IMG/VR virus record: IMGVR_UViG_2541047748_000013
Reading direction: 5' to 3' (one strand)
Origin: a virus
Taxonomy: Duplodnaviria > Heunggongvirae > Uroviricota > Caudoviricetes
DNA length: 41,069 nt
Part shown: piece after piece, positions 9,194 through 29,053 of the stretch
How positions within the stretch are numbered: the first letter of the stretch is position 1
How the letters are laid out: every line of letters begins with the position of its first letter
The notes under the pieces: model-generated
What the model saw: only the letters and a program-made list of their open reading frames with translations
What the model was told of the DNA's origin: nothing
The model's database searches: none
Position numbers and translations under genes: made by a program

Positions 9194-9205
9194 GTGACAT
9201 GTCAC
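9194..9205. repeat. 12-bp perfect palindrome GTGACATGTCAC, copy 1 of 3; contains the TGA stop of the 9202-9498 gene
   Basis: Exact 12-mer also at 26777-26788 and 29042-29053, each next to a terminator hairpin. Confidence 0.6.
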
Positions 9206-9498
9206 GTTCCTTTTCTGAATGATAGCCGTTCGAAAAATGATGACATTCCACCGCAGACAATAGCAAAGATGATCCCACCAAAGAAGAGAAGGCCAGCCTG
9301 CCACCACTCCCACCGCCATACATCCACAGCACCAACCATACCAACAATCGCTCCAACAAATGGAATATAGCTCACGATGAAAGCAATGGGGGCTGCAATT
9401 ATCCAGTGCAATCCCCACCATGATTCAAGCCCAGCCATAATTGCTGCCAACTGAAAAAGGCCAACGACGATATAAACAATGAATCCTATCGCTTGCAT
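9202..9498 (-). CDS. Small integral membrane protein (3 TM), superinfection-exclusion-like position
   Basis: 98 aa, Trp-rich hydrophobic helices, directly downstream of the ejection-protein genes. Confidence 0.5.
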   Translation of the reverse strand: MQAIGFIVYIVVGLFQLAAIMAGLESWWGLHWIIAAPIAFIVSYIPFVGAIVGMVGAVDVWRWEWWQAGLLFFGGIIFAIVCGGMSSFFERLSFRKGT

Positions 9499-9510
9499 GT
9501 AGTCACCTAT

Positions 9511-9684
9511 TTACCCAGTAAAAATCAGAGGCCTCCCCTCAATAAGGCTTGCAACAAGAACTATTCCCTGCACAACAAAGATGAACCAGCAAATAGCTTG
9601 AGTCTGAGGGTTAAGAAAATATTTGTAGCGGTCAATAAATAACAACCCACCAGAAATTATCACACTCAAAATAATTAAAAACAC
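9511..9684 (-). CDS. Possible small hydrophobic protein (GTG start)
   Basis: 57-codon ORF not in the supplied track; AAGGAAG RBS 4-5 nt upstream of GTG; two hydrophobic segments. Confidence 0.3.
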   Translation of the reverse strand: MFLIILSVIISGGLLFIDRYKYFLNPQTQAICWFIFVVQGIVLVASLIEGRPLIFTG

Positions 9685-9693
9685 AACACTTCC

Positions 9694-12168
9694 TTATTGC
9701 GGAGTGACATCCTGAGGTCGCCACCAGTATGTCTGATTAAACTCTTTCTTCGAACGTTGCTCCATTTTACGCAAATAGCCTGGTGAAAAATACTCCTGCA
9801 TCTGGTTCAAGATCATATGATCGAGAGCCGCCTTTAAGTACCAGAGATTCGCACCTGGCATCAAACCTTTCCCCAGCTTCACCAGATCACCACCAGTCTG
9901 CTCACTCTTCCCTTCCACAGCATTTAACGGTATGCCCTGAGCAATCTTCACTACGTCATCAACCAGACCAGCTACCGGGCCAAGCATCGACGCCAGCGCG
10001 CCGCTTCCGTACCTAGTGTGATCTGACAATAAAAAGTCACCGTAAAGGCCAAGGCCACCACCTTTCAGTAGAGCACCAAGCCAGAATTTTGCGGCACCTT
10101 CTCCTGTCATCTCTCGAGGATTACGACCAGACGCAAGGTCGTTAAGTTGCTGCGACAAAGCGCCAAGAATGGTCGTACTGGCAATAAACGTCGCAATATA
10201 TGCCGCACGCCCACCAGCAGACGGCATACCCATAGCGCGTGACCAGTGACGCATAACAACCGAGATAGGGAACGATTTAAACAGGAAAACACTTCTCGTT
10301 AATTCACCTTTCCATGTTCCACGCTGAATACCAGAACCGGTTATCAGTTGCTCACGTGCTCCCGGTGTAATAACAGCCATATCAACTTCTTCAGTTACGG
10401 CACCGAGCAGTTTACGCATTGCCTCAAATTTCACTCGTTCAGGCTCACCAAGATGTTTAACTGCTGAATCAGGGATACGCATAATGCTTTCCGGTGTCAG
10501 CATCGTATTATTACCGTTCCCCCAGTCCTCCTGTTGCGCCAGCTTCCATACGCTCCAGTCTGTGTCAGTAATCCCTTTGCTTTTCAGGATACGAAAATCA
10601 GAGTCATCGAGGCTACGAAGGTCTGGTGTCCGTGACACTACTTCTCCCAGGCTTCCCATCATGGTTACGCCATAGGCGCGCTTGTGCGCATCTGACCATG
10701 CTGTAAGCCCACTGGCACGCATTACGGCCGTTGCCGCCCAACGAGACACTGACGGCCCCATATTATCCATCGCCCAGCGGTTAACGCTGCCAAGTAGAGA
10801 TTCCATCGCCAGACCAGCGCGGCGCGCCCGCGCAAGTTCTGTACGGTTCGTTGGGTCCATAGCTTCAAGCTGGTTGCGGAATAACTGGTTCATTGGAAGG
10901 TTGGTAACCTTCGCAGACAGATACATGGTTCCAAGATCAGAGAACGATGACAGCAACGCGGATCCGAGTCTGCTGGCAACCAGCCAGTTGCGGATATTGT
11001 CAGACCATCGCGCGATGTGCGGATTCGCTACAGGCTGTGTCTTTCCAGAAATAAAGTTGTACAGATTCTCTGTGTTGTTCGCCAGCCGCTCGACTTTACC
11101 GGTTTTACTCGGGTTAGCTGTTGCCGTTTCTGCCTTAACCTGATCAAGAAGGGAGCGGAAAACATGATCGGGGTTTGGGCCATATGTTTCCACCAGTGCA
11201 ATATCTTTACTGATACCTTCCAGGTGACCGACCATGATTTCCCATAGAGAGCGATCGCCATAAAGTTGCTGATATTGCAGATAGGAATCTGCATCTTTGA
11301 AATGTATCTGTCGTGATGCATTACCACGGTTAGCACGTGCGCCGGAAATTCGCATTCCGGTATCAGTAAGCTTATTCAGCCCACCAGTAGCGATCGTGTT
11401 ATAAGCCTCTCCAAGAAATGCAGACAACTCGGCATCGTTCATCAGTTGTCCATCGGCTCGGGTATAATATTTGCGATCCAGCTTACCTATAACATCGCTA
11501 ACCCATTTATCTTTTGATACCGCCCCAACCTTTTCCATAGAATGATGTTGAGGGATCCCCCAGTTTTCGAGATAGCCAATGTCCCCACCAGCATCATTAA
11601 ACCGGCGGCGGAGTAGATCTGTCACTTCTCTCCACGCCTTAGCACCTTTTCTTGCTTTAGCATTGCCAGTATTTTGCCCTCGCATTTCATATACCAGGTC
11701 ACGCACGCCCGCTTCATCTTCAAACAGGCCAAAAAAGCGAGGATCAACTGCTTCGAATGCCTCCTGCAATTGACTCAATGCATAATCACGAGTGGCTTTT
11801 GTTCTGGACTCAACAGAGAGGAAATTCGATTTACCGTCTGCATTAAAAGCAATAGTACGGTTAAGAGCGCCAAGTTTCCCATCAGCCCCTTGATAGCTAT
11901 TGATAAATTTATCCAATCTCTGACGTGCGGCTATAGTAAGAGCCACACGACGTTTCTTTAATGCCGCTTCTCGCTGTAATTCTTCAGATGCCAATTGTGC
12001 TGCACGATACAGCCGCTCTGACTCGGAAAGTTGTCGCCACGACATAGGGTCATCACGAGCAATGGAGCGCATATTGCGATAAATGCGGTCTTCAATGTTC
12101 TGTATTTCTCGCGCCGTTAACGTGCGCTGCGCCGCCTGCTGGACCGCTTGTATACATTCCTGTCTCAT
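9694..12168 (-). CDS. Internal virion / DNA-ejection protein (large)
   Basis: 824 aa, last of three large proteins following internal-virion-protein B-like gene, as in T7 gp15/gp16 block. Confidence 0.55.
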   Translation of the reverse strand: MRQECIQAVQQAAQRTLTAREIQNIEDRIYRNMRSIARDDPMSWRQLSESERLYRAAQLASEELQREAALKKRRVALTIAARQRLDKFINSYQGADGKLGALNRTIAFNADGKSNFLSVESRTKATRDYALSQLQEAFEAVDPRFFGLFEDEAGVRDLVYEMRGQNTGNAKARKGAKAWREVTDLLRRRFNDAGGDIGYLENWGIPQHHSMEKVGAVSKDKWVSDVIGKLDRKYYTRADGQLMNDAELSAFLGEAYNTIATGGLNKLTDTGMRISGARANRGNASRQIHFKDADSYLQYQQLYGDRSLWEIMVGHLEGISKDIALVETYGPNPDHVFRSLLDQVKAETATANPSKTGKVERLANNTENLYNFISGKTQPVANPHIARWSDNIRNWLVASRLGSALLSSFSDLGTMYLSAKVTNLPMNQLFRNQLEAMDPTNRTELARARRAGLAMESLLGSVNRWAMDNMGPSVSRWAATAVMRASGLTAWSDAHKRAYGVTMMGSLGEVVSRTPDLRSLDDSDFRILKSKGITDTDWSVWKLAQQEDWGNGNNTMLTPESIMRIPDSAVKHLGEPERVKFEAMRKLLGAVTEEVDMAVITPGAREQLITGSGIQRGTWKGELTRSVFLFKSFPISVVMRHWSRAMGMPSAGGRAAYIATFIASTTILGALSQQLNDLASGRNPREMTGEGAAKFWLGALLKGGGLGLYGDFLLSDHTRYGSGALASMLGPVAGLVDDVVKIAQGIPLNAVEGKSEQTGGDLVKLGKGLMPGANLWYLKAALDHMILNQMQEYFSPGYLRKMEQRSKKEFNQTYWWRPQDVTPQ

Positions 12169-12173
12169 TTAAT

Positions 12174-13976
12174 TTAACCTCTCAAGAAACACGCCACAGC
12201 GACATCAAACAGGCTGGAATCCTGTATTGCCTGCTCACTTTCCCTGTTCGTTTCATCCAGTACTTCACGCGCACTGCGCGATTGTGGATTACCATCATCA
12301 TCCAGCACGGTGATTATCATGTCAGGTGATTCAAGCAGCGAGTCTTCAGCTATGCGCAGATCAATATCTCCTGCCTGATCTGACATCATTTTTTGTTCTG
12401 TCTGTTGCAATATCTTACCGGGCTCAAAAGGAGCTACTTCGTCTGGCGTCCTGACCTCTGCTGTTTTATAGAATGAAACAGCCTGAGCATTAAGTTCACT
12501 TTCTGCCTGCTGTCGCCGTGCCAGTTCTGCTCGAGCTTCAAAAAACTGACCGCCAGGCTCATGCGGTGCCAACGCGTTACGGGAAAATTCCAAGCGTTCT
12601 TGTGCCTGCCGGATTCGTTGGTCAATATCGCGAAGTCTGGCCTGTTTATCTGATCGAGCACGAGATAAAGCCTTACCGCTACCGGTTGGCTCTTCTGCAA
12701 GAATTTGTGCGCGCTGTTCAGTGAGATTTTCAATAATTCGTTGGCTATTAGCGATTTCAGACTGGTAAACCTGTCTATCGCCACGCGGCAAAAGCTGCGC
12801 GGCCTGTTCTTCAAGCAACCGATTTTCTATAGCGCGCGCCGTTACTCCATCATCTACAGATGACAGAGCCTCATTAACTGCCTGAGACAGCAGACTCTTG
12901 CGCCCAGGAATTTCACTGAAAGATGCAGACTCAACAATGCTGGCAACGTCTACAGGTCTCCCCTGGCTAACATCAGACATGGCTTTTCGCAGAGCCTGAA
13001 TGTGCGAATTACGCGAAAGCACGTTGATCGGAACGCCGGGAGCAATATCAATTTCAGCATGATGAGCGGCATTCGCCGCCAGTGCAGCATCGATATCAAC
13101 TGGTGCAAAATTTGGTGCGCTTGTAGACTCGCCGCGAGAGTTCATAAATCTGCCGACACCACCAAACGCCACCCCAAGAACAGCATCAATAGCAATTGCC
13201 TGTCGATCCAACACATCATACTGGTTAGCCATTTCGCTATAGCCACCATCACGAAGCGTTTTTGCAGTAAGCCCACGCTGTGCCATACCGAACGCAATAT
13301 TTGTACCTGCGGCATAGGCAATATCTGGCGTTGCACGTACTGCTGTTGCTGCGGCGCGTCGCACTGAACTTTCACCCGTCCGCGCAAGCTGGGCCGCCAC
13401 ACCTTCCGCCAGCGCACCACCAGCACGTAACCCGAGGCTCATAGGGATCAGTGTTCCGGCACCAGCAGTAATACCCTGCACTAATCCCGCTTCCTGCGCC
13501 GTCCTGAAATCAACACCCTGAGCGGACAGGCGCTCAAATTCAGAGAATCCCTGAAGAGAGGTAACTGCGGCTGCGCCACCAATCGGCCCTGCTAATGCTG
13601 AACCGACAACAGCCTGTCCGCCCATATCGAACAACCCATAAAGAACCTGCCCGGCGGTTCCGGTTGTCGCGGCATCAGGCGTCAACCGCTTAACCTGCTG
13701 CTCTGCTAGTTTTCTCTGCTCGGCAATGTATGAAACTGAAGTATCATTGAACGAGGTGTTTTCGTTAACAAACTGAGCAATCGGGGATACGATTTTATCC
13801 ATTCCTGCCCATAGCAACTGGTCTGGCTTTGCCACCAGCCCGGAGTACAAACCAGACAATGCCGCTCCTACAGCATTGTCGAAAAAACCAACATCGCTGT
13901 TAAATCCCGCTGGATTTGATGCTGCTTCGTCAAGCTGCTGATTCTGGTTTACTGGATTAAGGCCAAAGTAACTCAT
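12174..13976 (-). CDS. Internal virion / ejection protein, Gly/Ala-rich
   Basis: 600 aa, G/A-rich N-terminal half, position in ejection block. Confidence 0.55.
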   Translation of the reverse strand: MSYFGLNPVNQNQQLDEAASNPAGFNSDVGFFDNAVGAALSGLYSGLVAKPDQLLWAGMDKIVSPIAQFVNENTSFNDTSVSYIAEQRKLAEQQVKRLTPDAATTGTAGQVLYGLFDMGGQAVVGSALAGPIGGAAAVTSLQGFSEFERLSAQGVDFRTAQEAGLVQGITAGAGTLIPMSLGLRAGGALAEGVAAQLARTGESSVRRAAATAVRATPDIAYAAGTNIAFGMAQRGLTAKTLRDGGYSEMANQYDVLDRQAIAIDAVLGVAFGGVGRFMNSRGESTSAPNFAPVDIDAALAANAAHHAEIDIAPGVPINVLSRNSHIQALRKAMSDVSQGRPVDVASIVESASFSEIPGRKSLLSQAVNEALSSVDDGVTARAIENRLLEEQAAQLLPRGDRQVYQSEIANSQRIIENLTEQRAQILAEEPTGSGKALSRARSDKQARLRDIDQRIRQAQERLEFSRNALAPHEPGGQFFEARAELARRQQAESELNAQAVSFYKTAEVRTPDEVAPFEPGKILQQTEQKMMSDQAGDIDLRIAEDSLLESPDMIITVLDDDGNPQSRSAREVLDETNRESEQAIQDSSLFDVAVACFLRG

Positions 13977-17525: not shown

Positions 17526-19996
17526 CAGAATCCCCCAACAGTAAGGCGAGGAATAACGGCAAGAACAGACAGCGGCAACGGGTCAAGCTGACGGATTTTT
17601 ACACGTCCGTTTTTGCCCCAGTTACTGTCCAGTTTCACTTCTACTTTTCCGGTAGCGTCATCAACAGGATCATCGTAGAACTCGAATTCACGCTGTGGAT
17701 ATTCGTACCATTTACCGCCGGGCGTAGTCGCCCAGATGCCGCGACTGGCATTCACAACCAGAGTAACAGACGGGATCACCTGTTTTTTGTCCAGCAGCGT
17801 TTCCTGTCCGTTAATGTTGATATCCAGTGTTTCGAATTCAGCAGTTATTGGCAGGCCGATGTGCACTACAGCCCCCGGAGATTCCAGCGTGACGGCACCT
17901 CCGGAAACCACTTTCTGTGGTTCCACGTTCGCATCAGAGAGGATGTTTACGGTCTGGCCTTCAAGATGAGACAAGCCGCCAAATGTCCGGCGCGCCATCT
18001 GCCAGTTCGTGGTGGCCACATTCCTGAGGGATGGCGGGACGTTCCTGTTAGCACGAACCACTACAGCGGTATTGCTGGTTACAGAAATAATGTCGCAACG
18101 TAATTCTTTTGACACCTCATCGCCAGTATCAGGATCAGTTCCGGTATAAGGGAACTGTAGTTGCGCGCCGACATCACTACTGGTGAAGTACGCACCACCA
18201 GAAACACTGATTGTATATTCCGCGCGGTAATCCCATTCGCCAGAACCACCAGTGATGATCATCGTTCTGTCAGACGTATTTCTTCCATCATAGCTAAGGC
18301 CAGAATCAACAAAGAAAGCATCTTCATCGCTGGTAAATAAACGGCTGGACAGTCGCTCGATGTATCTCACTGTTTGCCCGTTAACGGTTCGGTTAATGAC
18401 GAAATACACCGCATCTTCATTGCCTTCGCTGATACTGCATGTGCTTTCATATTTTCCGGTACTGGACTGTGGTGCCCATGCAAAAACCTGTTGATCACGC
18501 AAATAGGTCATCACCAGTAATTTACCGTCATCACGAATGCAGAAGGCGCTGGAGTAAGGGACTATCGAGAAGCACCAGTCAACAATGCTGTGCTTCTGAA
18601 AAAGATGATTGGCAAGGATAGTAAGGTCGTTCCCCTGATAGCCGTCAACATCGAATGAGTAGGCCAGATCACGGACAACACTGCCTTTCTCCTGGACGAA
18701 CAGAGCAATATTCGCCACGGCAATTGGTGGGACATTGCTCGAGCCATTTGATCCCTGAGAGCTGAATGCAAATGATGATGGGGTAAGCACTTTGTTCTGG
18801 TCGCCAGTGATGACGTACTCACCTCCGGAAGTCAGCGCCACCAGCGAACCAACATCAATCAGGTGACGGATCTCATTAACCTGACGCCCGGCATAGGTGT
18901 AGATAATTCTGTCGTCATCCTGCGTAGGATTGCTTTTGCCAAAATCCTTATAATCCCCGGTACGGCTGGCCCAGATAGTCTGAGGAAACGCAGTCGATGC
19001 GGCGAAGTAAAGACGTTGTTGATAATAAACAACAGTGCCAGGATAACCATTAACACTGTTCCAGGCATATTTAGCCCATTTATAGCTGGCATTATCCTCG
19101 CCCACGACCTGCGAAGGGATATAGGAAATCACCTCGGCAGTTGCAGTAGTTCCATTTGCAGCAGTGATACGGGCAATGCCAAAACCACTGTGCAGATATT
19201 CCCACTCAATGCCAGTATCATCATCACCGGATCCGCCCCAGCCATCCCATGATGTGCCTTCTGTATGCGAAGGGCGCAAAGTACCTGTTTTGCCTGCTGT
19301 AACGGCGCGATAGTAGTTACTGTCTGCACGGCGAATATCGCCAATCGACGTACTCTTACTGGTTTCCCATACCGGCACAGAATCCACTGCAGGCTGTTCC
19401 AGATAGAACAATTTGCCTACCTGCTCCGCGCCAAAAATAGAGGCGCTTGCCGTTAGCGTAATTGTCCCGGTGCTGGCGCTGGCATAAACCGTCACTGACT
19501 CGTCAATATTGATATCTTCAAATGGCCCGTTCTTCGTTACCACATCAACCAGTTGCCAGTTGTCATGCGCATAGCGGCGCAACTCTTTCGGCGGGTATGC
19601 CGGATGAACCAGCGTAAGCACGTCTGCGCTTTGCGTGAATTTAATTCGGAACAGATCGGCTTCAGTATATGGCGTGGAAATTTCATAAATAACATTGCTG
19701 CTGTTCAGCACCAACGCACCATCTTTGATAACGCGCATGTACTGGTGTCCGAACTCCAGAGCATAAGTCTGAACCGTCGAGAACTGGAACGGGATCAGGC
19801 GGCATTTCCGATTTGGGTATTTGGCGGCACCGACAAAACGCGTACCAGGTCGATTCTCAACTCCGCCATACTGCCGCACGATAAAGTTATCGCACTTGCG
19901 CAATGCCACCTGGTACTTCGCCATGTCAATACGACCGTACAACGACGGTCCAATCTCACCACCGGCAAAGCTGGGCTGGATCCAACTGATAGCCAT
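17525..19996 (-). CDS. Tail tubular protein B-like (nozzle)
   Basis: 823 aa, follows a 201-aa tail tubular A-like gene; size and order as T7 gp11/gp12. Confidence 0.55.
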   Translation of the reverse strand: MAISWIQPSFAGGEIGPSLYGRIDMAKYQVALRKCDNFIVRQYGGVENRPGTRFVGAAKYPNRKCRLIPFQFSTVQTYALEFGHQYMRVIKDGALVLNSSNVIYEISTPYTEADLFRIKFTQSADVLTLVHPAYPPKELRRYAHDNWQLVDVVTKNGPFEDINIDESVTVYASASTGTITLTASASIFGAEQVGKLFYLEQPAVDSVPVWETSKSTSIGDIRRADSNYYRAVTAGKTGTLRPSHTEGTSWDGWGGSGDDDTGIEWEYLHSGFGIARITAANGTTATAEVISYIPSQVVGEDNASYKWAKYAWNSVNGYPGTVVYYQQRLYFAASTAFPQTIWASRTGDYKDFGKSNPTQDDDRIIYTYAGRQVNEIRHLIDVGSLVALTSGGEYVITGDQNKVLTPSSFAFSSQGSNGSSNVPPIAVANIALFVQEKGSVVRDLAYSFDVDGYQGNDLTILANHLFQKHSIVDWCFSIVPYSSAFCIRDDGKLLVMTYLRDQQVFAWAPQSSTGKYESTCSISEGNEDAVYFVINRTVNGQTVRYIERLSSRLFTSDEDAFFVDSGLSYDGRNTSDRTMIITGGSGEWDYRAEYTISVSGGAYFTSSDVGAQLQFPYTGTDPDTGDEVSKELRCDIISVTSNTAVVVRANRNVPPSLRNVATTNWQMARRTFGGLSHLEGQTVNILSDANVEPQKVVSGGAVTLESPGAVVHIGLPITAEFETLDININGQETLLDKKQVIPSVTLVVNASRGIWATTPGGKWYEYPQREFEFYDDPVDDATGKVEVKLDSNWGKNGRVKIRQLDPLPLSVLAVIPRLTVGGF

Positions 19997-20974: not shown

Positions 20975-21319
20975 TTACACGCCTAGTTCTTTACGCTTAT
21001 CTGCGATCTTCTCGCGGAGCGTTTCGGCTTTAGCGTTATGGTGTGGCTTCTCGTTAAAGAGCAATTCGTACTCTTCACGGAGCTTATCCAGTTCACCATC
21101 ATCTGACACATCGTTGATGATTTTGGTGCTGGTTGCTGCCATTGACACCTTTCCTGCAACTTTTGCTTTTGCCTGTCTGGCTGCATCGTTAACAGGTTCC
21201 AGTGCGCTACCAGGCTCACCTTCGTATTCGATTTCTGCCCCCTCCGGCCACAGTGTGTTATGGATATGAGAGAGGCGCAGAACGCGGTATCTTGGTTTCT
21301 CACCTGACATCGATATCAC
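20975..21319 (-). CDS. Virion-module hypothetical protein
   Basis: 114 aa, contiguous with structural operon. Confidence 0.45.
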   Translation of the reverse strand: MISMSGEKPRYRVLRLSHIHNTLWPEGAEIEYEGEPGSALEPVNDAARQAKAKVAGKVSMAATSTKIINDVSDDGELDKLREEYELLFNEKPHHNAKAETLREKIADKRKELGV

Positions 21320-21320
21320 C

Positions 21321-21758: not shown

Positions 21759-21809
21759 CTTCTTTCTCCATTAGTGGGTCTGTTACGACCCACAGGTTAA
21801 TAACAGGCG

Positions 21810-22802
21810 TTACACCACGCGGGCTTCTGTTTCCAGAAGCGCATCAGTTTCACGGATTGGTACACCACGGAATGAAGTCCACCACTCGCCTTCTGTCTCT
21901 TTTACGCTGATAGCCAGAGATGTTTTCTCCAGAGACTGCAGATCAAGAGCCTGGCCTACAGTGCGGTTCATGTAGAACACCGGGCGGCCCATGCCACGGT
22001 TTGGAATGCGATGCAGTGCTTTAACCATCAACTTCGCAATATTTGCGGCAGAGGATGGTTCTGAAAGATTGCTGACATCGATGTTTGCAATGCGAACAAC
22101 ATAACGCCAGTCACGCAGAGCAAGTCCGTTATCCCATTTGTAATGGGTGCGATAGCCTTCGTACTTGCCGCCATTAGCATCTTCCAGTGTCACCTGGCCT
22201 TTATCTTCCATCTGGATGCCAGCCTTCTGCCCTTTCGGGAAGATGCCATGCACGGTGTTTTCGCCCCACACCACTAACCAGATTGAGGTGTTATCTGTAC
22301 CCGTGCCACCAGCATCAATGATGTTCTGAGCATTACCCGCAGACAGGCTGGAATAGCGGGAGGACAGTCCCATAAACTGCTGAGGATTAACGCTGGAATC
22401 ACCATAAAACAGCGTCTGCGCCATCTGCTGATTCATCGCTTCAATAAATGCGCGGTCTTCAGAAAGGCGGAATTCGGCGGTATTGCCGTTCAGATCAGCC
22501 AGTGACTTATCGACTTCCGCATAGGTTTCCAGCATGCCAACGGAATCGGTTACCTGCACTGTGGTTGATTTGCTTGGCTGTACGCCATAGTTCAGCAAAC
22601 GCCAGGTAGCTGAAGGTAAACCAGAACGAATGGTGGTTCGGTGTCCGGTAGGAAGGTTCCCTTCGACAAAAGGCATATCCTGAAGGATCGGGTTAGTTTG
22701 ACCGAGAAGCTCGATAATCTTATCGACTTTCCCGTTTGGATCGACGCGCTTACCCCAGTCAGCCAGCGTTAGCGCAGTTAAGCCTTTAACAGCCATTGTC
22801 AT
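21810..22802 (-). CDS. Major capsid protein
   Basis: 330 aa, follows scaffold gene in the canonical terminase-portal-scaffold-capsid order. Confidence 0.7.
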   Translation of the reverse strand: MTMAVKGLTALTLADWGKRVDPNGKVDKIIELLGQTNPILQDMPFVEGNLPTGHRTTIRSGLPSATWRLLNYGVQPSKSTTVQVTDSVGMLETYAEVDKSLADLNGNTAEFRLSEDRAFIEAMNQQMAQTLFYGDSSVNPQQFMGLSSRYSSLSAGNAQNIIDAGGTGTDNTSIWLVVWGENTVHGIFPKGQKAGIQMEDKGQVTLEDANGGKYEGYRTHYKWDNGLALRDWRYVVRIANIDVSNLSEPSSAANIAKLMVKALHRIPNRGMGRPVFYMNRTVGQALDLQSLEKTSLAISVKETEGEWWTSFRGVPIRETDALLETEARVV

Positions 22803-22810
22803 TTCCTCTC

Positions 22811-23512
22811 TTATTTGCCATAGAGCACTTCGGCCGCACTACGCTGGCCTTCATTACTACCGGTGACCATGCCATCTTCAGACATCGCCTTTCCGATTTT
22901 CACGAACGTTTTGACCAGATCAGGGTGATTACCCAGCCCGGTGGTGTTCAGATATTCTTTGAGTTCAGGTGTCCCGAACTGGTCAAGCGCACGCTGTGCG
23001 GCGCTAAGGTTAGAAATCAACTTGTCGCCACCGATTTCTTTGTCAGCTTTTACATCAGCAGCCCACTGCTCGGTTGTTTTCTGCCAGGCTTCTGCCTGGC
23101 GCTGCTGCACACCTGCCAGAATCTTCGGATAAGCATCAACCAGCTTTTGCGCTTGCTCGTTGGTCAGGTTTAGTTCTCGCGCCACCGGCTCGAATTCCTT
23201 CAACGCTTCTGTATCCAGCTCTACGCCTTCGGCAGCCTGAAACTCGTACTTTTCAGGCGCACCCTCTGGTTTATCGCCGTCCTTTTTTTCATCCTGCTTA
23301 TCGTTTTCAGGCTTTTTGTCATCAGCAGGTTTATCGCCATCAGCAACAGGTTGTGGCTTATCACCTTCCTGTTGTGATGGATCACCAACTGGAGCAGGGT
23401 TATCACCTGCAGGCGCTGACGGTTCTGACGCAGCCGGAGCTGCTCCACCATCGACTGGTTGCTCATTGCAAAGACGGCGATACAGCAAACGCTCAAATAA
23501 ATTCATGATCAC
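22811..23512 (-). CDS. Scaffolding protein
   Basis: 233 aa, acidic, Pro/Asp/Lys-rich low-complexity N-terminal half, between portal and capsid. Confidence 0.65.
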   Translation of the reverse strand: MIMNLFERLLYRRLCNEQPVDGGAAPAASEPSAPAGDNPAPVGDPSQQEGDKPQPVADGDKPADDKKPENDKQDEKKDGDKPEGAPEKYEFQAAEGVELDTEALKEFEPVARELNLTNEQAQKLVDAYPKILAGVQQRQAEAWQKTTEQWAADVKADKEIGGDKLISNLSAAQRALDQFGTPELKEYLNTTGLGNHPDLVKTFVKIGKAMSEDGMVTGSNEGQRSAAEVLYGK

Positions 23513-23805
23513 TCCTGTTCACTGGCCTCTTTGGCCATCTTCAAATACTGTTCAGGGCAATGCGCCATAACGCGCTGAAACAGTTCCAGCGCCAGATTGC
23601 GTTGCCCCTCATTAAATGCCATTGCCATAGCGTCCATCGGTGAGATAGCGGAAAACACACGGCCTTTCTCCAGCACCGACCAGACAACGCGACGCCCCTG
23701 TTCACTGCTCATGACAAAGCGAATGTCATCAATTTCACGCTGTGCCATGTCACGTTGCTTACGGGCGTTTTCTTCTTTCAGTTGATCATCTTCGTAATCT
23801 GTCAT
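23509..23805 (-). CDS. Hypothetical head-assembly protein
   Basis: 98 aa, 4-nt overlaps with portal and scaffold genes. Confidence 0.5.
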   Translation of the reverse strand: MTDYEDDQLKEENARKQRDMAQREIDDIRFVMSSEQGRRVVWSVLEKGRVFSAISPMDAMAMAFNEGQRNLALELFQRVMAHCPEQYLKMAKEASEQE

Positions 23806-25481
23806 TGTGATTGCCCACCCTGACCACTAACTGCATTCGCCATAGCTGACAAAACACTCGGATCCGAAGTTTTAGCTTCGCTTAGCGTCTTGGCACCCTG
23901 TGCCGCCGCCATCCCCATCGCCATCATTTGTTGCTGCTGTTGTTGCTGTGCCCGTTGCTGGCGAGCCTGCTCAACCTGTTCCTGCGGAACAATGACGGTT
24001 GGAGACACTCCGGACATATCAGCGAATGCATCGATCGCCTGATCAACGTTGAGTTTGTCGAGAGCTTCTGGTTTCGCTTGCGCAAGTTGACCAATGAAGT
24101 TAACCGTGGACGCCAGACTGGACAGGCCGATAGACTTCTGCGCCTGAGCCATGACGGAAATGTATTCGACCTTCAGGGGCATACCTTCCATCACGTCTGG
24201 CGGTGGCGGCAGCATGTTTTTACGCACCATCATCGAGAAAGAGCGGTCAATGAGAGGATTAAGACATTCGTCGTTCAGACGCTCCAGAACCGGCCCCAAC
24301 ATCAGAAGTTTTTCTTCTTTCATTTCGATCACCGCTTCAACAGGCATCGAGCGGGTATTGATGTTCTGCAACATCATGAACAGATCGACAAAGTAGGCGC
24401 TGTTAATGATTTGACGAGTGTCCTGAATGTCTGCCACCAAATCTGCTGTACTGGGGTTAACCAGATAAGCAGGCCTGAAACCATCCTGACCAGTAATCTG
24501 ATCGATATACGTGATGTCGCCAGGAAGAAGGGAGGCACGCTGATTCTTGAGGGAAGTCGGAGCAACCATCGGCGGATTGGTGGCTTTATCAATCAACTGC
24601 GACTTGCGCTTCTGAAGAAGCTGCAATGCCTTAACAGATCCAAGCGCCAGCATACCCGGGCATGATGATCCATAAACATCTTCGCCGTTAACTTCCCAGC
24701 GCGGAGCCATAATTGGAAACTCATCGAATCCGGACTCACGCAACAACTTGTCGTTATCGCCACCAACCTCGTAATAAACCGATTTGAATGGCTTGTTCTT
24801 GCTATCCAGCTTCGATGTATCGCGGTCAATGTTCGGGTAAACCGAATGCATCACTTCAATCCACTTCTCGTAGGTGCCGCTTTCCCACATGCTTTTTACG
24901 GATTCGCTGACGTTATTTAGTCCGAACTCCTGAACAAGCTGACGAACAGTCATAGAGAACTTGCGAAAACAGGTGTCCACACTGCCACGAGGTGAGTTAG
25001 CCAGGTAGTAACTGCCTATCGGGAATGGCATTGTGCGAATGATGTCCTCGTCATCCTCCAGCACTGCCATTGCACCAGTGCTGTATGTGCCGAGGCTTCC
25101 GTATAACTGCGGCAGCGACTGATAGAGATTCGACTTATTGAACATATCGTTCATGCGGTTCTGCACCGCCTCAAGCCACAACTTAACAGGGCCATAATCC
25201 ATCATTTCAGGATCTGGCGTAGCCAGGCGAAACCACGGACGCGCGGGGCTTGTGATGCCTGACATCATGCCGCTGGCGAGAGTGCGCGCCGCCATAGTCC
25301 CGGTCGAATCAATAATGCGTGTATTGCGTCGATCGTTACGGTTAACCTCAGAAGTCAGAAAGCGGGAACCACGCGGGTTGATGTAATCACTCAACTCGCG
25401 CCAGTGCGGCTCGAACGACTGACGCTCGCTTTCAAGTTGTGCGAACTGTTTGTTCAATCGCTCTTTAGTTGTTTCCGCCAT
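23802..25481 (-). CDS. Portal (head-to-tail connector) protein
   Basis: 559 aa, first large gene after terminase; Gln/Ala/Met-rich C-terminus reminiscent of T7 gp8; GGAG RBS. Confidence 0.75.
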   Translation of the reverse strand: MAETTKERLNKQFAQLESERQSFEPHWRELSDYINPRGSRFLTSEVNRNDRRNTRIIDSTGTMAARTLASGMMSGITSPARPWFRLATPDPEMMDYGPVKLWLEAVQNRMNDMFNKSNLYQSLPQLYGSLGTYSTGAMAVLEDDEDIIRTMPFPIGSYYLANSPRGSVDTCFRKFSMTVRQLVQEFGLNNVSESVKSMWESGTYEKWIEVMHSVYPNIDRDTSKLDSKNKPFKSVYYEVGGDNDKLLRESGFDEFPIMAPRWEVNGEDVYGSSCPGMLALGSVKALQLLQKRKSQLIDKATNPPMVAPTSLKNQRASLLPGDITYIDQITGQDGFRPAYLVNPSTADLVADIQDTRQIINSAYFVDLFMMLQNINTRSMPVEAVIEMKEEKLLMLGPVLERLNDECLNPLIDRSFSMMVRKNMLPPPPDVMEGMPLKVEYISVMAQAQKSIGLSSLASTVNFIGQLAQAKPEALDKLNVDQAIDAFADMSGVSPTVIVPQEQVEQARQQRAQQQQQQQMMAMGMAAAQGAKTLSEAKTSDPSVLSAMANAVSGQGGQSQ

Positions 25482-25495
25482 TTCAATGACTCCGG

Positions 25496-25702
25496 TTACT
25501 GACCAAGCAGCGTTTTACCGCTGGTATTAGCGGTTGATGTGTCGCCCTGAGAACCGGTAAGCAGCGTAGAACTACGACCAGCAGCAACGCGACGGCGACG
25601 TGTTTCTTCGTCGCGGGCATCAACAACGGCGGCATCCTGCTCCTGTGGTGCTGCCTGAACTTCTGGTGTTGCAGGCACTGATGGTGAGCTACCCATGCAC
25701 AT
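25496..25702 (-). CDS. Small hydrophilic hypothetical protein
   Basis: 68 aa, GGAG RBS 9 nt upstream, stop 12 nt before portal start; preferred over overlapping 25483-25722 frame. Confidence 0.45.
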   Translation of the reverse strand: MCMGSSPSVPATPEVQAAPQEQDAAVVDARDEETRRRRVAAGRSSTLLTGSQGDTSTANTSGKTLLGQ

Positions 25703-25770
25703 ATCAATGACTCCGTACGCAATTAAATTATTACCAATTTAACCACATATGATTTATTTATCGTAGATAG

Positions 25771-25807
25771 TTGACATTTAACGCACAAATTATTACCTTT
25801 CAGGTAA
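25771..25807 (+). promoter_or_regulatory. Putative plus-strand promoter (TTGACA) with TTACC-N5-GGTAA dyad upstream of tRNA-Arg
   Basis: TTGACA at 25771-25776; dyad TTACCTTTCAGGTAA at 25793-25807 identical to the 6618 site. Confidence 0.4.
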
Positions 25808-26129
25808 CCAAAGAGTTCATTCCGGTTACTAACCTGACTGGCTTGTCGTTAAATTGAACAGGTGGAGTGAGCTTTTATTTTGAGCAGTACGGCGTATGGC
25901 ACATGCGCCGATAGCGGTCTGGATACGTTTAAGGGGCACCCTCCCTTGCTCGGGCAAACGAACCAGGTAGCCGGAATGTGCAAGTCGAGCGGTTTTATTC
26001 CGCGCACGGGGATTCACCATCCCGGCGATTCGGTGTGACGCCTCGGAAGAGACGAGGGTACAACGATGAGAGCATTTATGGAGCCGCGACAAAGTGTGGC
26101 GCCTTAACAGGCTAAGTGCTCTCAGCGTT

Positions 26130-26206
26130 GTGGCATTAGCTCAGTTGGACAGAGCAACCGCCTTCTAAGCGGTTGGTCGCAGGTTCGAATCCTGCATGCC
26201 ACGCCA
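26130..26206 (+). tRNA. tRNA-Arg (anticodon UCU)
   Basis: Manual cloverleaf: acceptor GTGGCAT/ATGCCAC, D-stem GCTC/GAGC, anticodon stem ACCGC/GCGGT with loop CTTCTAA, T-arm GCAGG-TTCGAAT-CCTGC, discriminator G, encoded CCA. Confidence 0.9.
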
Positions 26207-26249
26207 GAATCACGCCTAAGGACCGTGATGCCAGAAGTTCCAGGTGCTT

Positions 26250-26291
26250 GGCGGTGATGGTTTCCCTTGAAGGACTATCACCGCCCTTTTT
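26250..26291 (+). terminator. Intrinsic terminator downstream of tRNA-Arg
   Basis: GGCGGTGAT...ATCACCGCC stem followed by CTTTTT. Confidence 0.55.
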
Positions 26292-26400
26292 ACAGCAGGA
26301 CGCCATTGCGATGACTTCATGCTGTAAACCAGTACAGCCACGGAAGGCATAACTCATTGCTTCCGGTTCGCCGGGCATTTTTTTAAGGTGAGATTAGACT

Positions 26401-26772
26401 ATGAGTGACAAAGACATTGAATCTGAAATTCAGGCTAAAGGTTTAGCCGCGCCGCGCGTTACGCCAGACCATATCGAGAGCATTATTGCTCAGGAGGCAT
26501 ATTTCACAGCAGAAGATGGTGCCTTTGGCGTAGCCATAAAAGCGAAACATACTGGCGGAGAGGTAAACTACCAGCCGCACGAATCACTTTCTCTGCTGAC
26601 GTTCTGCGTCCTGGTGCTGCGCAACGGCTTCACCGTCACCGGAGAGAGCGCCTGTGCAAGCCCGGAAAACTTTGATGCGGAAATTGGTCGGAAGATTGCC
26701 CGGCAGAATGCTGTAAACAAAATCTGGATGCTTGAAGGTTACTTGCTGAAGCAGAAGTTAAGCGAGCAATAA
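26401..26772 (+). CDS. Gp49 / Sf6 gp66-family phage protein
   Basis: 123 aa; recalled resemblance to the Phage_gp49_66 family; plus-strand island inside the minus-strand late operon. Confidence 0.55.
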   Translation: MSDKDIESEIQAKGLAAPRVTPDHIESIIAQEAYFTAEDGAFGVAIKAKHTGGEVNYQPHESLSLLTFCVLVLRNGFTVTGESACASPENFDAEIGRKIARQNAVNKIWMLEGYLLKQKLSEQ

Positions 26773-26776
26773 CACC

Positions 26777-26788
26777 GTGACATGTCAC
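26777..26788. repeat. 12-bp palindrome GTGACATGTCAC, copy 2 of 3
   Basis: 4 nt after the Gp49-like stop, immediately followed by a terminator hairpin. Confidence 0.6.
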
Positions 26789-26791
26789 AAA

Positions 26792-26819
26792 CAGCCAGCC
26801 GATGAGCTGGCTTTGTTTT
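26792..26819 (+). terminator. Intrinsic terminator after the Gp49-like gene
   Basis: AGCCAGC cgatga GCTGGCT followed by TTGTTTT. Confidence 0.55.
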
Positions 26820-26862
26820 ATCCTCACCAGAGGATATCTCCGTCATTATCCCCGCTAACGGA

Positions 26863-28338
26863 TTAAGCATAGGGATCATAATCTGTAATGGCCTTGCCTT
26901 GCTGGTTCTGCTGCCCGGGAATTCGCAGACGCTTAGACACAGGGAACGCAAACGTCAGCAGTAGCGCATCGCCTTTACCCGGCGAACGCCCAAGCCGCTC
27001 CTTGATATCTTCCTTCGGTTCGATAACGATTTTACCGTCCACACGAACTTTGTACTCTGCCGCCGACAGGTCGTCTGCAGTTTCCTGGTCATCCAGCATG
27101 CCGCCGAGCCTCAGCCATGTCTTGCATGAGTTGAACATCTCCCCACGCTTGTTGAGCATCTGCGGGTCAGTAGACGCGCCACCGAACGGAACAAGTTGCC
27201 ATGTACGTCCCCAGCCATCACCGATTGACTTCAAACCGGTTCCGTAACCGAAGTCGATGAACACCGCGTCAGCCTGATACTGGTCTTCAAAGTCAGCGAT
27301 ACGCTTCGCCATAATCAGATCGTCGGTAGTCTTGTTGCCAGTCCACAGCACCTTACTGTGTAGCCCCTGCCGCAGGTATATCACCGCGTCATCAACGCCT
27401 GAATATGCCGGGTCAACACCGATTATCACCGGAGCATGTGCAACCTGCGCAGCGGTAACCACCCGCTTCATGGCCTCGTCTGTAAGGCCTGTTGGGATAA
27501 ACTGGAGTTCTGACGCGTCAGGGAAGATCCCCCGCACGCGGACCTTCACGAAGTCGCTGTCTTCGCCGTAGTCGTCAACCCATTTCTGCAGCTGCTGCTT
27601 GTTTGTGCCTTCCACGGTGCGGCTGTCAATCTGCGCGCACTTCCAGCGGTGCTTGTACTTGCGGAAGCATTCGCGGAAGCGCCCGGTGTTACGCGTCGGG
27701 TTCCCAAACGCCACCCAGATAATTTCCGTGTCTTCGTCCGTAAGCGCACCCTCAGCAACTTCCCACACCAGATCCGCAATGTTCGACGCTTCATCGAATA
27801 CCACGATGATGCGTTTGCGCTCGTTGTGTAGTCCGGCGAATGCCTCGGTGTTGTGCTCAGACCAGGGTATTGCGTCAGCCCGCCACCGCTTGTCGTGCCC
27901 TAGGTCATTGCTGTACATCGCGGTAGCGGTACAGGTAAACCAGTCTTTCGTGATAGCAAGGTTCGACCACTTGATAATTTCCGGCCAGGTCTTCGTTCGT
28001 AGCTGGTTGTCGGTGTTGGCGGTCACCACGACCTTACAATCCTCGCAAGTGGACATGCCCCAGTTGATCAGCATTGAGATGAATGCGGATTTACCAATAC
28101 CGTGACCAGAAGCGCGTGCCAGCATAAGCGGCTGATAGCGCGTCTCTGGATTCTGCAGGTGATCACGTATCTCTCGGAACGCATCAGCCTGCCACTGACG
28201 TGGGCCGGTGGCATGTGCCAGTTCAGTCCCCTCTTCCCCCCACGGGAACGCATAGAGGGCATAGCCAAGCGGATCGTGAGTGAACCCTGCAATATCCTCG
28301 ATTAACTGCTCTTCAGGAGATAACGCTGTATCTGTCAC
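26863..28338 (-). CDS. Terminase large subunit
   Basis: 491 aa; N-terminal ATPase-like region (GHGIGKSAF Walker A-like) and C-terminal nuclease-like region; overlaps small subunit stop. Confidence 0.85.
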   Translation of the reverse strand: MTDTALSPEEQLIEDIAGFTHDPLGYALYAFPWGEEGTELAHATGPRQWQADAFREIRDHLQNPETRYQPLMLARASGHGIGKSAFISMLINWGMSTCEDCKVVVTANTDNQLRTKTWPEIIKWSNLAITKDWFTCTATAMYSNDLGHDKRWRADAIPWSEHNTEAFAGLHNERKRIIVVFDEASNIADLVWEVAEGALTDEDTEIIWVAFGNPTRNTGRFRECFRKYKHRWKCAQIDSRTVEGTNKQQLQKWVDDYGEDSDFVKVRVRGIFPDASELQFIPTGLTDEAMKRVVTAAQVAHAPVIIGVDPAYSGVDDAVIYLRQGLHSKVLWTGNKTTDDLIMAKRIADFEDQYQADAVFIDFGYGTGLKSIGDGWGRTWQLVPFGGASTDPQMLNKRGEMFNSCKTWLRLGGMLDDQETADDLSAAEYKVRVDGKIVIEPKEDIKERLGRSPGKGDALLLTFAFPVSKRLRIPGQQNQQGKAITDYDPYA

Positions 28339-28931
28339 TGATTGCCATCCTGACGTTCTTTCAGTCTCTTCCTGGCTGCCGCTATGCGATCAGCAATTGT
28401 CACATTCACATTAACATCCAGGCGTTCTTTGAATGCGTTGACGTCGACGTGCTTACCAATCAGTTCGAGGTTCTTCACCTTGTCAGGCCATTTAATTTTT
28501 TTGAGGATTGTCTCTATCGAATCCTCGTTCATGTTCATGATGGTCGATGACAGATCAAAGCCACTAAGCGTAGTGCGCCAGATTTTCGGCCACTCGCGGA
28601 TTGGCTTAAGGCTCCCATCGTCGTTGAGGATGTCGATCACGTCCATCTGGTCGATCTCCACCAGGCGCATGAGAACGTAATCAGCACTGACGCGCATTCG
28701 TTTGTTGCGCTCCTCCATCAACTCGGCAATCCGTTTTTGAATGCGTTCATCGCGCATCATGACACTGGCTTTAACTGCCGCTGTATTTGGGGAGAATCCT
28801 GCGTTAATCGCTGCCTGAGTCTGGTTTTCAGGCGTTTTGATGTATGACTGGCAATAAGCCTCCTGCATTGCTGTTAGTGGCTTAAATTGCGTTGATTTGC
28901 GTTTATAGGCTTTAGGTTCAGCAGGCATCAT
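28335..28931 (-). CDS. Terminase small subunit
   Basis: About 198 aa from internal Met pair (MMPAEP); immediately upstream of large subunit; listed ORF start at 29009 judged too far upstream. Confidence 0.7.
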   Translation of the reverse strand: MMPAEPKAYKRKSTQFKPLTAMQEAYCQSYIKTPENQTQAAINAGFSPNTAAVKASVMMRDERIQKRIAELMEERNKRMRVSADYVLMRLVEIDQMDVIDILNDDGSLKPIREWPKIWRTTLSGFDLSSTIMNMNEDSIETILKKIKWPDKVKNLELIGKHVDVNAFKERLDVNVNVTIADRIAAARKRLKERQDGNQ

Positions 28932-28948
28932 AACCACCGTGGTAATAG

Positions 28949-28963
28949 TTACCGTTGTGGTAA
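28949..28963. promoter_or_regulatory. TTACC-N5-GGTAA dyad cluster just upstream of the terminase small subunit start
   Basis: TTACCGTTGTGGTAA flanked by GGTAATAGTTACC and GGTAATAGTACC. Confidence 0.45.
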
Positions 28964-28971
28964 TAGTACCA

Positions 28972-29000
28972 TGCAAAATAAAGCCGCCATAGTTGGCGGC
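28972..29000 (-). terminator. Intrinsic terminator (minus orientation) in front of the packaging/late operon
   Basis: Minus-strand hairpin GCCGCC aactat GGCGGC followed by TTTATTTTG. Confidence 0.5.
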
Positions 29001-29041
29001 AGTATTCAAACCCCATCAAATTCATCATGCATAATCTACTC

Positions 29042-29053
29042 GTGACATGTCAC
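29042..29053. repeat. 12-bp palindrome GTGACATGTCAC, copy 3 of 3; contains the TGA stop of the 29050-29391 gene
   Basis: Exact 12-mer; about 40 nt upstream (minus direction) of the terminator hairpin. Confidence 0.6.

Follow-up and report, generated by a model that had tools for sequence, protein, structure and literature searches.

The omega repressor of pSM19035 recognizes operators made of 5'-(A/T)ATCAC(A/T)-3' heptad repeats, with one ribbon-helix-helix (RHH) dimer on each 7-bp heptad. MatP, the organizer of the E. coli Ter macrodomain, is likewise an RHH protein. Its site, matS, has the 13-bp consensus GTGAC[AG]N[TC]GTCAC and is avoided by prophages (PMC3603311).

The DNA analyzed here, referred to as the window (the whole stretch, 41,069 nt), is that of an epsilon15/phiV10-like temperate podophage. 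This group includes serotype-converting phages of Salmonella and E. coli O157; to our knowledge, the way in which its late genes are activated is not known. An earlier note had drawn attention to a 12-bp palindrome, GTGACATGTCAC, that recurs in the window, and had offered three roles for it: a regulator-binding site at operon boundaries, a terminator or antitermination accessory element, or a module-junction linker. Our literature search identified no paper on this motif in phages.

Palindrome copies in the window

The exact 12-mer occurs at positions 9194-9205, 26777-26788, and 29042-29053 (sites 1, 2, and 3); 0.01 copies are expected by shuffling, and 0 of 100 shuffles reached three, in agreement with the earlier judgment that the triplication is unlikely by chance. 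All three copies share an asymmetric 14-mer, CGTGACATGTCACA, in the orientations given in Table 1. Each copy marks the 3' end of a gene and lies 0-41 nt from an intrinsic terminator. As the earlier note had it, the TGA of the palindrome serves as the stop codon of two genes, the 98-aa ORF at site 1 and the regulator ORF at site 3 (29050-29391, - strand), and the palindrome at site 2 begins 4 nt past the TAA of the Gp49-like ORF. Terminator hairpins with T-runs were found in the direction of each upstream gene, directly abutting the palindrome at site 1 (0 nt), 4 nt away at site 2 (there on the + strand, as part of a bidirectional hairpin), and 41 nt downstream at site 3, before terS. With a folding energy of -2.7 kcal/mol and no U-run, the lone palindrome falls outside the definition of an intrinsic terminator; the neighboring hairpins fall within it. 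The accessory gene that ends at site 1 is missing from phiV10 at the corresponding place. The one-mismatch copy in Table 1 is probably not a functional site.

Table 1. Positions of the 14-bp elements and of neighboring features in the window
Feature	Position	Strand	Remarks
Site 1, 14-bp element	9193..9206	-	End of long head/tail transcription unit; kept in phiV10 and epsilon15
Site 2, 14-bp element	26776..26789	+	Between terL end and convergent Phage_gp49_66 gene; kept in phiV10 and epsilon15
Site 3, 14-bp element	29041..29054	+	Same position in epsilon15
One-mismatch copy, GTGCCATGTCAC	23742..23753		Within coding region; conserved by descent
Intrinsic terminator hairpin	9176..9193	-	AGGCCGCTTTCGCGGCCT + TGTTTTT
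Bidirectional terminator hairpin	26793..26812		AGCCAGC..GCTGGCT, flanked by A-rich and T-rich runs
Intrinsic terminator hairpin	28983..29000	-	GCCGCCAACTATGGCGGC + TTTATTTT; between regulator gene and terS
98-aa accessory gene	9202..9498	-	PHROG 3075; inserted between phiV10 p21 homologue and site 1
Accessory gene, reverse-oriented	26401..26772	+	Pfam PF13876 Phage_gp49_66; N4 gp49 / Sf6 gene 66 family
Candidate regulator gene, 112 aa	29050..29388	-	Last gene of early-right operon
Two tandem epsilon15-type repressor-operator 17-mers	28930..28964		ATTACC-N5-GGTAAT-like; abut probable terS start (ATG 28929, -)

Conservation of the motif and its linkage to a phage gene

In 83 non-redundant contexts, conservation extends one base beyond the 12-mer core on each side, which gives a 14-bp element with the consensus Y-GTGAC-AT-GTCAC-R, and nothing else is conserved there. 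The element consists of two inverted 7-bp half-sites with centers 7 bp apart, a layout typical of sites bound by dimers; it also fits the operator of an RHH pair, in which short half-sites, repeated or inverted, are spaced by less than a helical turn. The epsilon15 genome carries the exact 12-mer at all three homologous positions, with different flanks and different terminator hairpins, and this island of exact conservation suggests that the motif is under selection.

Counts in related phages, by which the earlier note had proposed to judge the palindrome and its association with gene 3' ends, speak in its favor. Using the candidate protein to collect loci, we searched 1.37 Mb of sequence; GTGAC-NN-GTCAC occurred 137 times, compared with 0-3 times for twelve control patterns that included 1-, 3-, and 4-bp spacings and swapped half-sites, while one-mismatch variants were at chance level (152 observed, 140 expected). 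In some relatives, an exact site is flanked by one-mismatch copies ~38 bp apart, forming operator-like arrays. All six complete genomes with a homologue of the protein, which span podo-, sipho-, and myoviruses of hosts from E. coli to Vibrio, have one to three sites; no sites were found in lambda, P22, or P2. A 106-kb sample of E. coli K-12 holds no site, and the same script detects a true matS there.

The gene adjoining site 3 is the key to the element. Among its close homologues, 77 of 78 have a stop codon within or ≤8 nt from a GTGAC-NN-GTCAC site. The same linkage is found in 49/49 N15-like loci, in ZF40, and in a Yersinia P2-like phage, and it persists in homologues of ~39-55% identity; because these loci are phylogenetically related, fewer independent events underlie the counts than the figures suggest. 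The linkage is not a coding artefact, because the site lies 2-8 nt after the stop where the gene ends in TAA. The pair of gene and site recurs in five unrelated phage lineages and in ~12% of complete E. coli genomes; members of the protein family occur in 637 of the 5,426 such genomes. Furthermore, the dinucleotide at the center of the site tracks the protein clade: it is TG at all sites of N15-like phages (GTGAC-TG-GTCAC) and AC or GC in Vibrio K308.

Positions of the sites vary by lineage. Most related loci have a counterpart of site 2 at a distance of 2.2-2.6 kb from site 3, and 70 of 86 site contexts fall outside long ORFs, whereas some sites in ZF40 and N15 are intragenic. In the epsilon15-like lineage, 48/86 site contexts have a terminator within 60 nt, compared with 16% of random positions, but terminators are mostly absent at the sites of N15, ZF40, and Vibrio K308. 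The earlier suggestion of a terminator or antitermination accessory therefore holds as a positional link within one lineage and not in general; because site positions differ between lineages, one function at terminators cannot be general.

The candidate cognate protein

The gene adjoining site 3, which the earlier note overlooked, encodes a member of the phiV10 p55 / epsilon15 gp49 / N15 gp46 family. PHROG 536 describes this family as “transcriptional regulator,” and PGAP calls it “hypothetical.” The protein begins with a basic helix (N-terminus AERKAAQRARQ), and four cysteines (C79, C82, C91, and C99) are invariant in the family. The protein may carry an RHH domain at approximately residues 22-66 followed by a putative C4 zinc ribbon; support for this architecture is moderate, and the fold assignment is weak. 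An hhalign comparison of the family with E. coli YbfE gave a probability of 60% and E = 8.8e-5 over 55 columns, which is below family thresholds; the aligned part of YbfE (residues 52-89) is its Pfam RHH_1 domain. NCBIfam likewise returned a sub-threshold match to the YbfE family (E = 0.05).

AlphaFold predicted a monomer with pLDDT 62, with helices at residues 30-40 and 52-74 and with residues 20-29 unstructured; Foldseek identified no matches to this model. A Pfam search of the protein gave no match. We detected no similarity to MatP, Arc, Mnt, omega, or CopG, and found no relationship to Q-, N-, or Ogr-type regulators.

Proposed role of the element

From sequence comparison, the likeliest partner of the 14-bp element is the 112-aa protein of the phage itself, which would recognize it as a DNA site. 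Their linkage and co-occurrence suggest that the protein binds the site physically, and its target would be DNA rather than RNA. The fuller reading, in which the element is the operator of this protein and may act in read-through control at transcription-unit boundaries, seems to us probable, if far from assured. It corresponds to the first of the three roles offered earlier, which is favored by the exact conservation of the motif, its strong enrichment, confined to phages that encode the small protein, and the copy fused to the gene; the set of three as a whole is partly supported.

Under this operator reading, the putative RHH/zinc-ribbon protein would bind as a dimer or a pair of dimers. 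Because the gene holds one site at its own stop codon, gene and site move together as a cassette; the two extra copies in epsilon15-like phages mark the 3' ends of both rightward late transcription units, each by an intrinsic terminator. The protein, made as the final product of the early-right operon, would then occupy the three sites and set the amount of transcription that crosses unit boundaries, enters terS-terL, passes the convergent accessory genes, and continues into the head/tail genes. It might do so by aiding polymerase past terminators, or as a roadblock or insulator.

A more specific and previously undescribed version of this mechanism, in which a DNA-tethered RHH/zinc-ribbon factor sits at unit 3' ends beside terminators and decides read-through, is speculative and in our view rather unlikely; if true, it would be the missing early-to-late switch of epsilon15-like phages, a group that lacks homologues of Q, N, and Ogr. 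The protein family is not a universal late switch, because late regulators of the Q-like or Ogr kind are already present in N15, ZF40, and the P2-like phage. In a more remote variant, the protein and its sites would be a phage counterpart of MatP/matS that bridges dispersed sites.

The analysis pairs an uncharacterized protein family with a sharply defined 14-bp site, and this pairing supplies exact coordinates for binding, ChIP, and read-through work. It also points to conserved putative protein sites at gene ends and not at promoters alone, which matters for the annotation of mosaic phage genomes.

Alternative explanations

The alternative that survives best, although we consider it improbable, places recognition at the RNA level: the transcribed palindrome would form a hairpin (4-5 bp stem, CNNG loop) bound by the arginine-rich N-terminus of the same protein, either as a nut/boxB-like antitermination loading site or as a translational operator by the ribosome-binding site of the next gene. 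Such a hairpin is predicted in all three contexts, apart from the terminator stems, and the N-terminus is both basic and helical; the sites lie at a stop codon and upstream of a terminator, like nutR, and in many relatives they are directly upstream (0-10 nt) of a Shine-Dalgarno sequence. However, the hairpin is weak, and its stem shows no covariation, as the ten outer bases are invariant and the variation falls in the would-be loop tip. The commonest center, AT, is self-complementary, a property relevant to duplex symmetry and irrelevant to RNA. The flanking Y and R combine independently, and the C..A mismatch is not depleted on the sense strand. The asymmetric N15 sites face differing ways relative to transcription, and in the late direction the terminator hairpin precedes site 2.

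A host factor (MatP, or another nucleoid or termination factor) that binds the motif and makes the phage protein irrelevant is very unlikely. Its appeal lies in half-sites identical to those of matS and in the hosts of the motif-carrying phages, which are all Enterobacterales, Vibrio, or Aeromonas, a range that overlaps with that of MatP. The palindrome was nevertheless rejected as matS, as its copies have 12 bp with a 2-bp spacer and matS has 13 bp with a 3-bp spacer; we found no matS with 0-1 mismatch in the window and no 3-bp-spaced copy in the 1.37 Mb of related loci. Avoidance of matS by prophages also argues against a host factor, which would leave unexplained the fusion of site and gene in five lineages, the clade-specific centers, and the absence of the motif from lambda, P22, and P2.

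We give equally little credence to a role in recombination, as a linker at module junctions, or in packaging, in which the palindrome would provide short homology or a terminase cleavage site and no transcriptional operator. The earlier idea of a linker is apt as a description: similarity between genomes stops where the palindrome does, with ~20 unrelated flanks downstream of the gene-site cassette at site 3 and 10 upstream of site 1, which is how the boundary or linker sequences of mosaic lambdoid genomes are defined, although the term describes position and not mechanism. As an account of function it fares poorly, since homologous recombination needs more than 12-14 bp and the junction pattern follows from the location of the site in conserved cassettes at gene ends. 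One site does lie just upstream of terS in epsilon15-like phages and Vibrio K308. However, N15 has no site near cos; in ZF40, the regulator gene (~14.6-14.9 kb) and the sites (5.1, 7.6, and 14.9 kb) are at least 9 kb from the terminase large-subunit gene (23.9 kb); most genes that follow the cassette have no part in packaging; and it would be unusual for one genome to have three pac sites.

The slimmest chance is that the palindrome is an upstream accessory of the intrinsic terminator (a pause or stability element) with no dedicated protein: all three copies in the window are near terminators and 29/86 contexts have a hairpin within 4 nt, but the palindrome stays invariant next to hairpins of differing sequence, no terminator lies within 60 nt in ~44% of contexts, the motif is missing from the other terminators of the window and from those of lambda, P22, and P2, and in one direction the hairpin comes before the site 2 palindrome.

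Comparison with known systems

The arrangement at site 3 resembles lambda Q/qut-tR' and N/nutR-tR1, where a regulator gene ends the early operon and is followed by its own site, a terminator, and late genes. Unlike those systems, the site described here is palindromic and present in several copies; the lambda regulators have no homology to the 112-aa protein, and N15 and ZF40 have a Q-like gene as well. Q-type antitermination (qut) was rejected as an identity: there is no Q-family match, the only promoter-like overlap is a weak -35-like match at site 3 (GTGACA-18-CATGAT, score 9/12), and the site and terminator are spaced differently in epsilon15 (22 nt) and in the window (41 nt).

The epsilon15-type repressor operators, of which the window holds 13 copies at places other than the palindrome, are also multi-copy palindromes on the same transcription units, but they stand at 5' ends and the palindrome at 3' ends. 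The operators annotated in NC_004775.2 differ from it in sequence, and we rejected an epsilon15 CI-type operator as its identity.

E. coli YbfE is the only detectable relative of the phage protein, with a likeness that covers the basic segment and the RHH domain. It is a LexA-regulated RHH_1 protein whose function and DNA site are not known, and, unlike the phage protein, it is without a zinc ribbon. MatP/matS shares with the phage system the half-sites GTGAC/GTCAC and the use of few dispersed sites per DNA domain; in contrast to the phage protein, MatP is encoded by the host, and hhalign finds no similarity between the two.

The omega repressor has no detectable sequence similarity to the phage protein, which has the additional C4 zinc ribbon, and its operators string together 7-10 heptads at promoters and centromeres, whereas each phage site stands alone at a gene 3' end and has two units. 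The likeness lies in the site itself: the 14-mer can be read as two inverted 7-bp units, TGTCAC(R), each a near-match to the heptad, and the phage protein is a putative RHH protein. A site for two adjacent dimers would explain the 7-bp center-to-center spacing.

Organization of the window and position of the palindrome

The window derives from a temperate podophage of the epsilon15/phiV10 type (Uetakevirus), with 96-98.5% identity to ZX5, HEMP4, phiv142-3 and TL-2011b across the aligned 52-77% of each half-window query. Viewed in the orientation of phiV10, the minus strand of the window carries the late genes, and there are three rightward units: the early-right operon, whose last gene encodes 112 amino acids (hereafter the regulator gene); terS-terL, which follows this operon; and a long head/tail unit beyond an accessory block in reverse orientation (comprising the gp49_66 gene and a tRNA-Arg). 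Each unit starts near repressor operators of the epsilon15 type and ends with the palindrome and a terminator.

An earlier note had described three exact copies of GTGACATGTCAC in the window and considered chance an unlikely origin. All three copies were recovered, and dinucleotide-preserving shuffles, with 0.01 copies expected, ruled out a chance repeat; the window contains a single copy with one mismatch. The gene contexts described in that note were also confirmed: two minus-strand ORFs stop at the TGA of the palindrome, the remaining copy starts 4 nt past the stop codon of the gene for a Pfam Phage_gp49_66 protein, and terminator-like hairpins, each with a T-run, are found at distances of 0, 4 and 41 nt from the copies. 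An asymmetric 14-mer, CGTGACATGTCACA, is common to all three.

Coordinates of the palindrome sites and associated features in the window and in related phages
Feature	Position	Strand	Remarks
Site 1	9194-9205		stop codon of 98-aa ORF
Hairpin at site 1	9193-9176
98-aa ORF (PHROG 3075)	9202-9498	-	corresponding phiV10 interval (L001), 19345-19504
One-mismatch copy of palindrome	23742		within coding region
tRNA-Arg (anticodon TCT)	26130-26206	+	accessory block between terminase and portal modules; adjoins Phage_gp49_66 gene
Phage_gp49_66 gene	26401-26772	+
Site 2	26777-26788
Hairpin at site 2	26793-26812
terS start, ATG (probable)	28929	-	MPAEPK..., same as epsilon15
terS start, TTG (probably wrong)	29009		ORF list and phiV10 annotation
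Hairpin at site 3	29000-28983
Site 3	29042-29053		stop codon of regulator gene
Regulator gene	29050-29388	-	ORF 29050-29391
ATTACC-N5-GGTAAT copies	28930-28964, 25792-25808, 6617-6633, 6997-7013, 8077-8093, 31689-31767, 33653-34828
Two of the N15 (L123) sites	28550-28561, 33237-33248
matS-consensus sequence, Vibrio phage K308 (L394)	19491-19503
LexA-box promoter, related loci	L395, about 8560-8700		also downstream of regulator gene in L003, L021, L032, L113, L119
14-mer in Q-like gene start, related loci			L008, L013, L018, L070, L111, L120

The 98-aa ORF is an insertion between the homologue of phiV10 p21 and site 1; in relatives this slot holds at least 10 different cargo sequences, and the palindrome always lies directly downstream. 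Regarding terS, the TTG start is disfavored because the terminator hairpin and operators would then fall within the coding sequence.

Conservation of the palindrome

In phiV10, the palindrome occurs at both homologous internal positions. A third copy, with one mismatch, spans the point where the GenBank record was opened (the ends of DQ126339.2 fall inside the palindrome: ...GTGA / CATGTTAC...), so linear searches return only two copies. Epsilon15 has exact copies at all three homologous positions, where the flanks and terminator hairpins differ. Using the shared 14-mer to scan IMG/VR, we found the motif beside many differing hairpins and flanks; because this approach biases the flanks of the resulting locus set, all statistics were redone with protein-anchored loci. 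Based on these comparisons, we infer that the palindrome is under selection.

Linkage to the regulator gene

The flank that recurs in the 14-mer loci is the 3'-terminal part of a small gene, whose product ends in ...GWHETKL.V. This is the regulator gene of the window, equivalent to phiV10 p55, epsilon15 gp49, N15 gp46 and ZF40 gp22, and it is assigned to PHROG 536 ("transcriptional regulator"). Loci were fetched via the protein, which avoids motif-search bias, yielding 80 close-homologue loci (78 with downstream sequence). A site is present at the regulator stop codon in 77 of those 78, with a second site 2.2-6 kb downstream in most close-homologue loci and none in the 10 kb upstream of the gene. 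Where the regulator gene ends in TAA (ZF40 and related loci L034 and L322-L325), the site lies 2-8 nt beyond the stop, which indicates that the association is not a coding artifact.

More distant homologues show related arrangements. The stop codon of N15 gene 46 lies within GTGACTGGTCAC, and this identical asymmetric variant occurs twice more in the N15 genome. GTGAC-NN-GTCAC covers the stop codon in all 49 N15-like loci (center TG in 48, GG in 1), and the TG variant is also found in repA in every N15-like locus with sufficient upstream sequence. In a Yersinia P2-like phage, GTGACGCGTCAC covers the stop codon of the regulator homologue. Vibrio phage K308, with a homologue of 31.6% identity, has three GTGAC-NN-GTCAC sites, one of them 20 nt upstream of terS, and in two more subfamilies each 20 kb contains 1-3 sites, at positions other than the stop codon. 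The pairing of the regulator gene with the site is well supported. Of 5,426 complete E. coli genomes, 637 have the cassette of gene and site (≥80% nucleotide identity), with the product listed as a hypothetical protein; E. coli ExPEC XM (NZ_CP025328.1) has one 100% match.

In the protein-anchored loci (1.37 Mb), 137 instances of GTGAC-NN-GTCAC were counted, compared with 0-3 for each of twelve control patterns, which included spacers of 0, 1, 3 (matS-like) and 4 bp as well as swapped and reversed half-sites. Variants with one mismatch are only as frequent as chance predicts, so specificity is sharp. Among 83 non-redundant contexts, Y-GTGAC-AT-GTCAC-R is the sole conserved part (Y at position -1 and R at position +12, each in 96%; AT center in 70 of 83 clusters, 84%). 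Each of the six complete genomes encoding a homologue has 1-3 sites, for a total of 15 in 243 kb against approximately 0.2 expected by our estimate from base composition. No sites were found in lambda, P22 and P2, all of which lack the regulator gene, or in 106 kb sampled from E. coli K-12; the same script detected a canonical matS in the Ter-region sample.

Genomic context of the sites

In relatives, a long ORF has its 3' end no more than 60 nt away in ~58% of site contexts, and 70 of 86 contexts are outside long ORFs, compared with 17% of random positions. The association with terminators held in part: a terminator-like hairpin is present within 60 nt in 48 of 86 contexts (within 4 nt in 29), against baselines of 16% (all random positions) and 31% (random positions outside ORFs), but it is not universal: the sites of N15, ZF40 and K308 are intragenic or lie after a stop codon and ahead of the following Shine-Dalgarno sequence. 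The suggestion of a module junction was also upheld as a description of position: homology between genomes ends at the palindrome, with ~20 unrelated sequences downstream of the cassette and 10 upstream of site 1. In some relatives, the exact site is flanked by one-mismatch copies ~38 bp apart, resembling an operator array.

Several individual sites have other neighbors. In N15, one site precedes by ~24 nt a good promoter (TTGACG-18-TAGAGT) that points toward genes 32-30, the antirepressor region, and another site is within repA; these two suggest regulatory targets unlike the epsilon15-like ones. Downstream of the cassette, several relatives have a small gene under a TTGACT promoter that includes a perfect LexA box (CTGT-N8-ACAG); this module, absent from the window, looks SOS-controlled and possibly encodes an antirepressor. 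In some loci, codons 2-6 of a gene for a Q-like antiterminator coincide with the exact 14-mer (ATG CGT GAC ATG TCA CAG, MRDMSQ...); one of these loci (L070) also encodes a regulator homologue 12 kb away. This occurrence may reflect coding coincidence or be a genuine target at the start of Q.

Recognition of the palindrome and possible function

The main rival to recognition of duplex DNA is a role at the RNA level, through the arginine-rich N-terminus of the regulator. The transcribed palindrome could fold into a weak hairpin (-2.7 kcal/mol) that does not involve the terminator stems; however, the ten outer bases show no covariation, the would-be loop tip is the variable part, the most frequent center (AT) is self-complementary, and on the sense strand the flanking Y and R bases vary independently of each other, giving no signal of RNA pairing. 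These points of sequence favor duplex recognition.

In epsilon15-like phages, the regulator is the last early-right product, and its sites lie beside terminators at the ends of the three rightward units, where it would control read-through from one unit to the next. The annotations of phiV10 and epsilon15 include no homologue of Q, N or Ogr, and together these features make read-through control the most economical reading; the predicted effect may be to promote or to block passage, both of which fit the sequence. Since regulators of the Q-like or Ogr type are present as well in N15, ZF40 and the P2-like phage, the general role of the family is probably local control at gene boundaries and not a universal late switch.

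Other functions fared less well. A late-promoter activator is unlikely to work with fixed geometry, as epsilon15 and the window differ by ~18 bp in the spacing between site 3 and the operator/terS region. As a promoter, the half-site GTGACA is -35-like and sites 1 and 3 give 9-of-12 matches, but shuffles give as many, and the distance from site to terminator varies between phages. A link to packaging is disfavored by the diverse genes downstream of the cassette. The palindrome is not the terminator itself, its own fold being just -2.7 kcal/mol, nor a CI-type repressor operator, since the repressor binding sites annotated in the epsilon15 record are ATTACC-N5-GGTAAT. The window has 13 copies of the latter (≤2 mismatches; 1.2 expected), placed at late-unit starts and in the immunity region, with a tandem pair adjoining the terS start codon.

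The palindrome is also distinct from matS: its half-sites are identical to those of matS, whereas its spacer is 2 bp instead of 3. Avoidance of matS in prophages has been reported (PMC3603311). K308 has one canonical 13-bp matS-consensus sequence, GTGACACCGTCAC, alongside its three 12-bp sites. In the literature, we found neither the 12-mer nor the N15 variant in a phage context, and the ZX5 paper does not treat the regulator protein.

The regulator protein and comparison with known DNA-binding proteins

In an alignment of 17 diverse members, the N-terminal segment is basic, a beta-alpha-alpha-like pattern is seen, and four cysteines are invariant (C79, C82, C91 and C99). AlphaFold, with a shallow alignment, predicted helices at residues 5-19, 30-40 and 52-74 (pLDDT 62). 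A Foldseek search with this model gave no match, and neither did a profile search of the regulator against Pfam and PDB. NCBIfam gave a sub-threshold match to the LexA-regulated protein YbfE, and hhalign aligned the regulator family with YbfE over 55 columns (probability 60%, E = 8.8e-5). The aligned YbfE segment is the Pfam RHH_1 domain, and RefSeq names YbfE as a ribbon-helix-helix (RHH) protein. Based on this match and the invariant cysteines, the reading of the regulator as a ribbon-helix-helix protein with a C4 zinc ribbon is moderately supported. Using hhalign, we identified no homology to MatP, Mnt or Arc, or to omega and CopG, for which approximate sequences were used.

The site consists of two inverted 7-bp units that are TGTCAC-like. 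RHH proteins such as omega bind TGTCAC-like 7-bp units, with one dimer per heptad; the likeness of the omega heptads to the 7-bp units of the phage site is a lead only.
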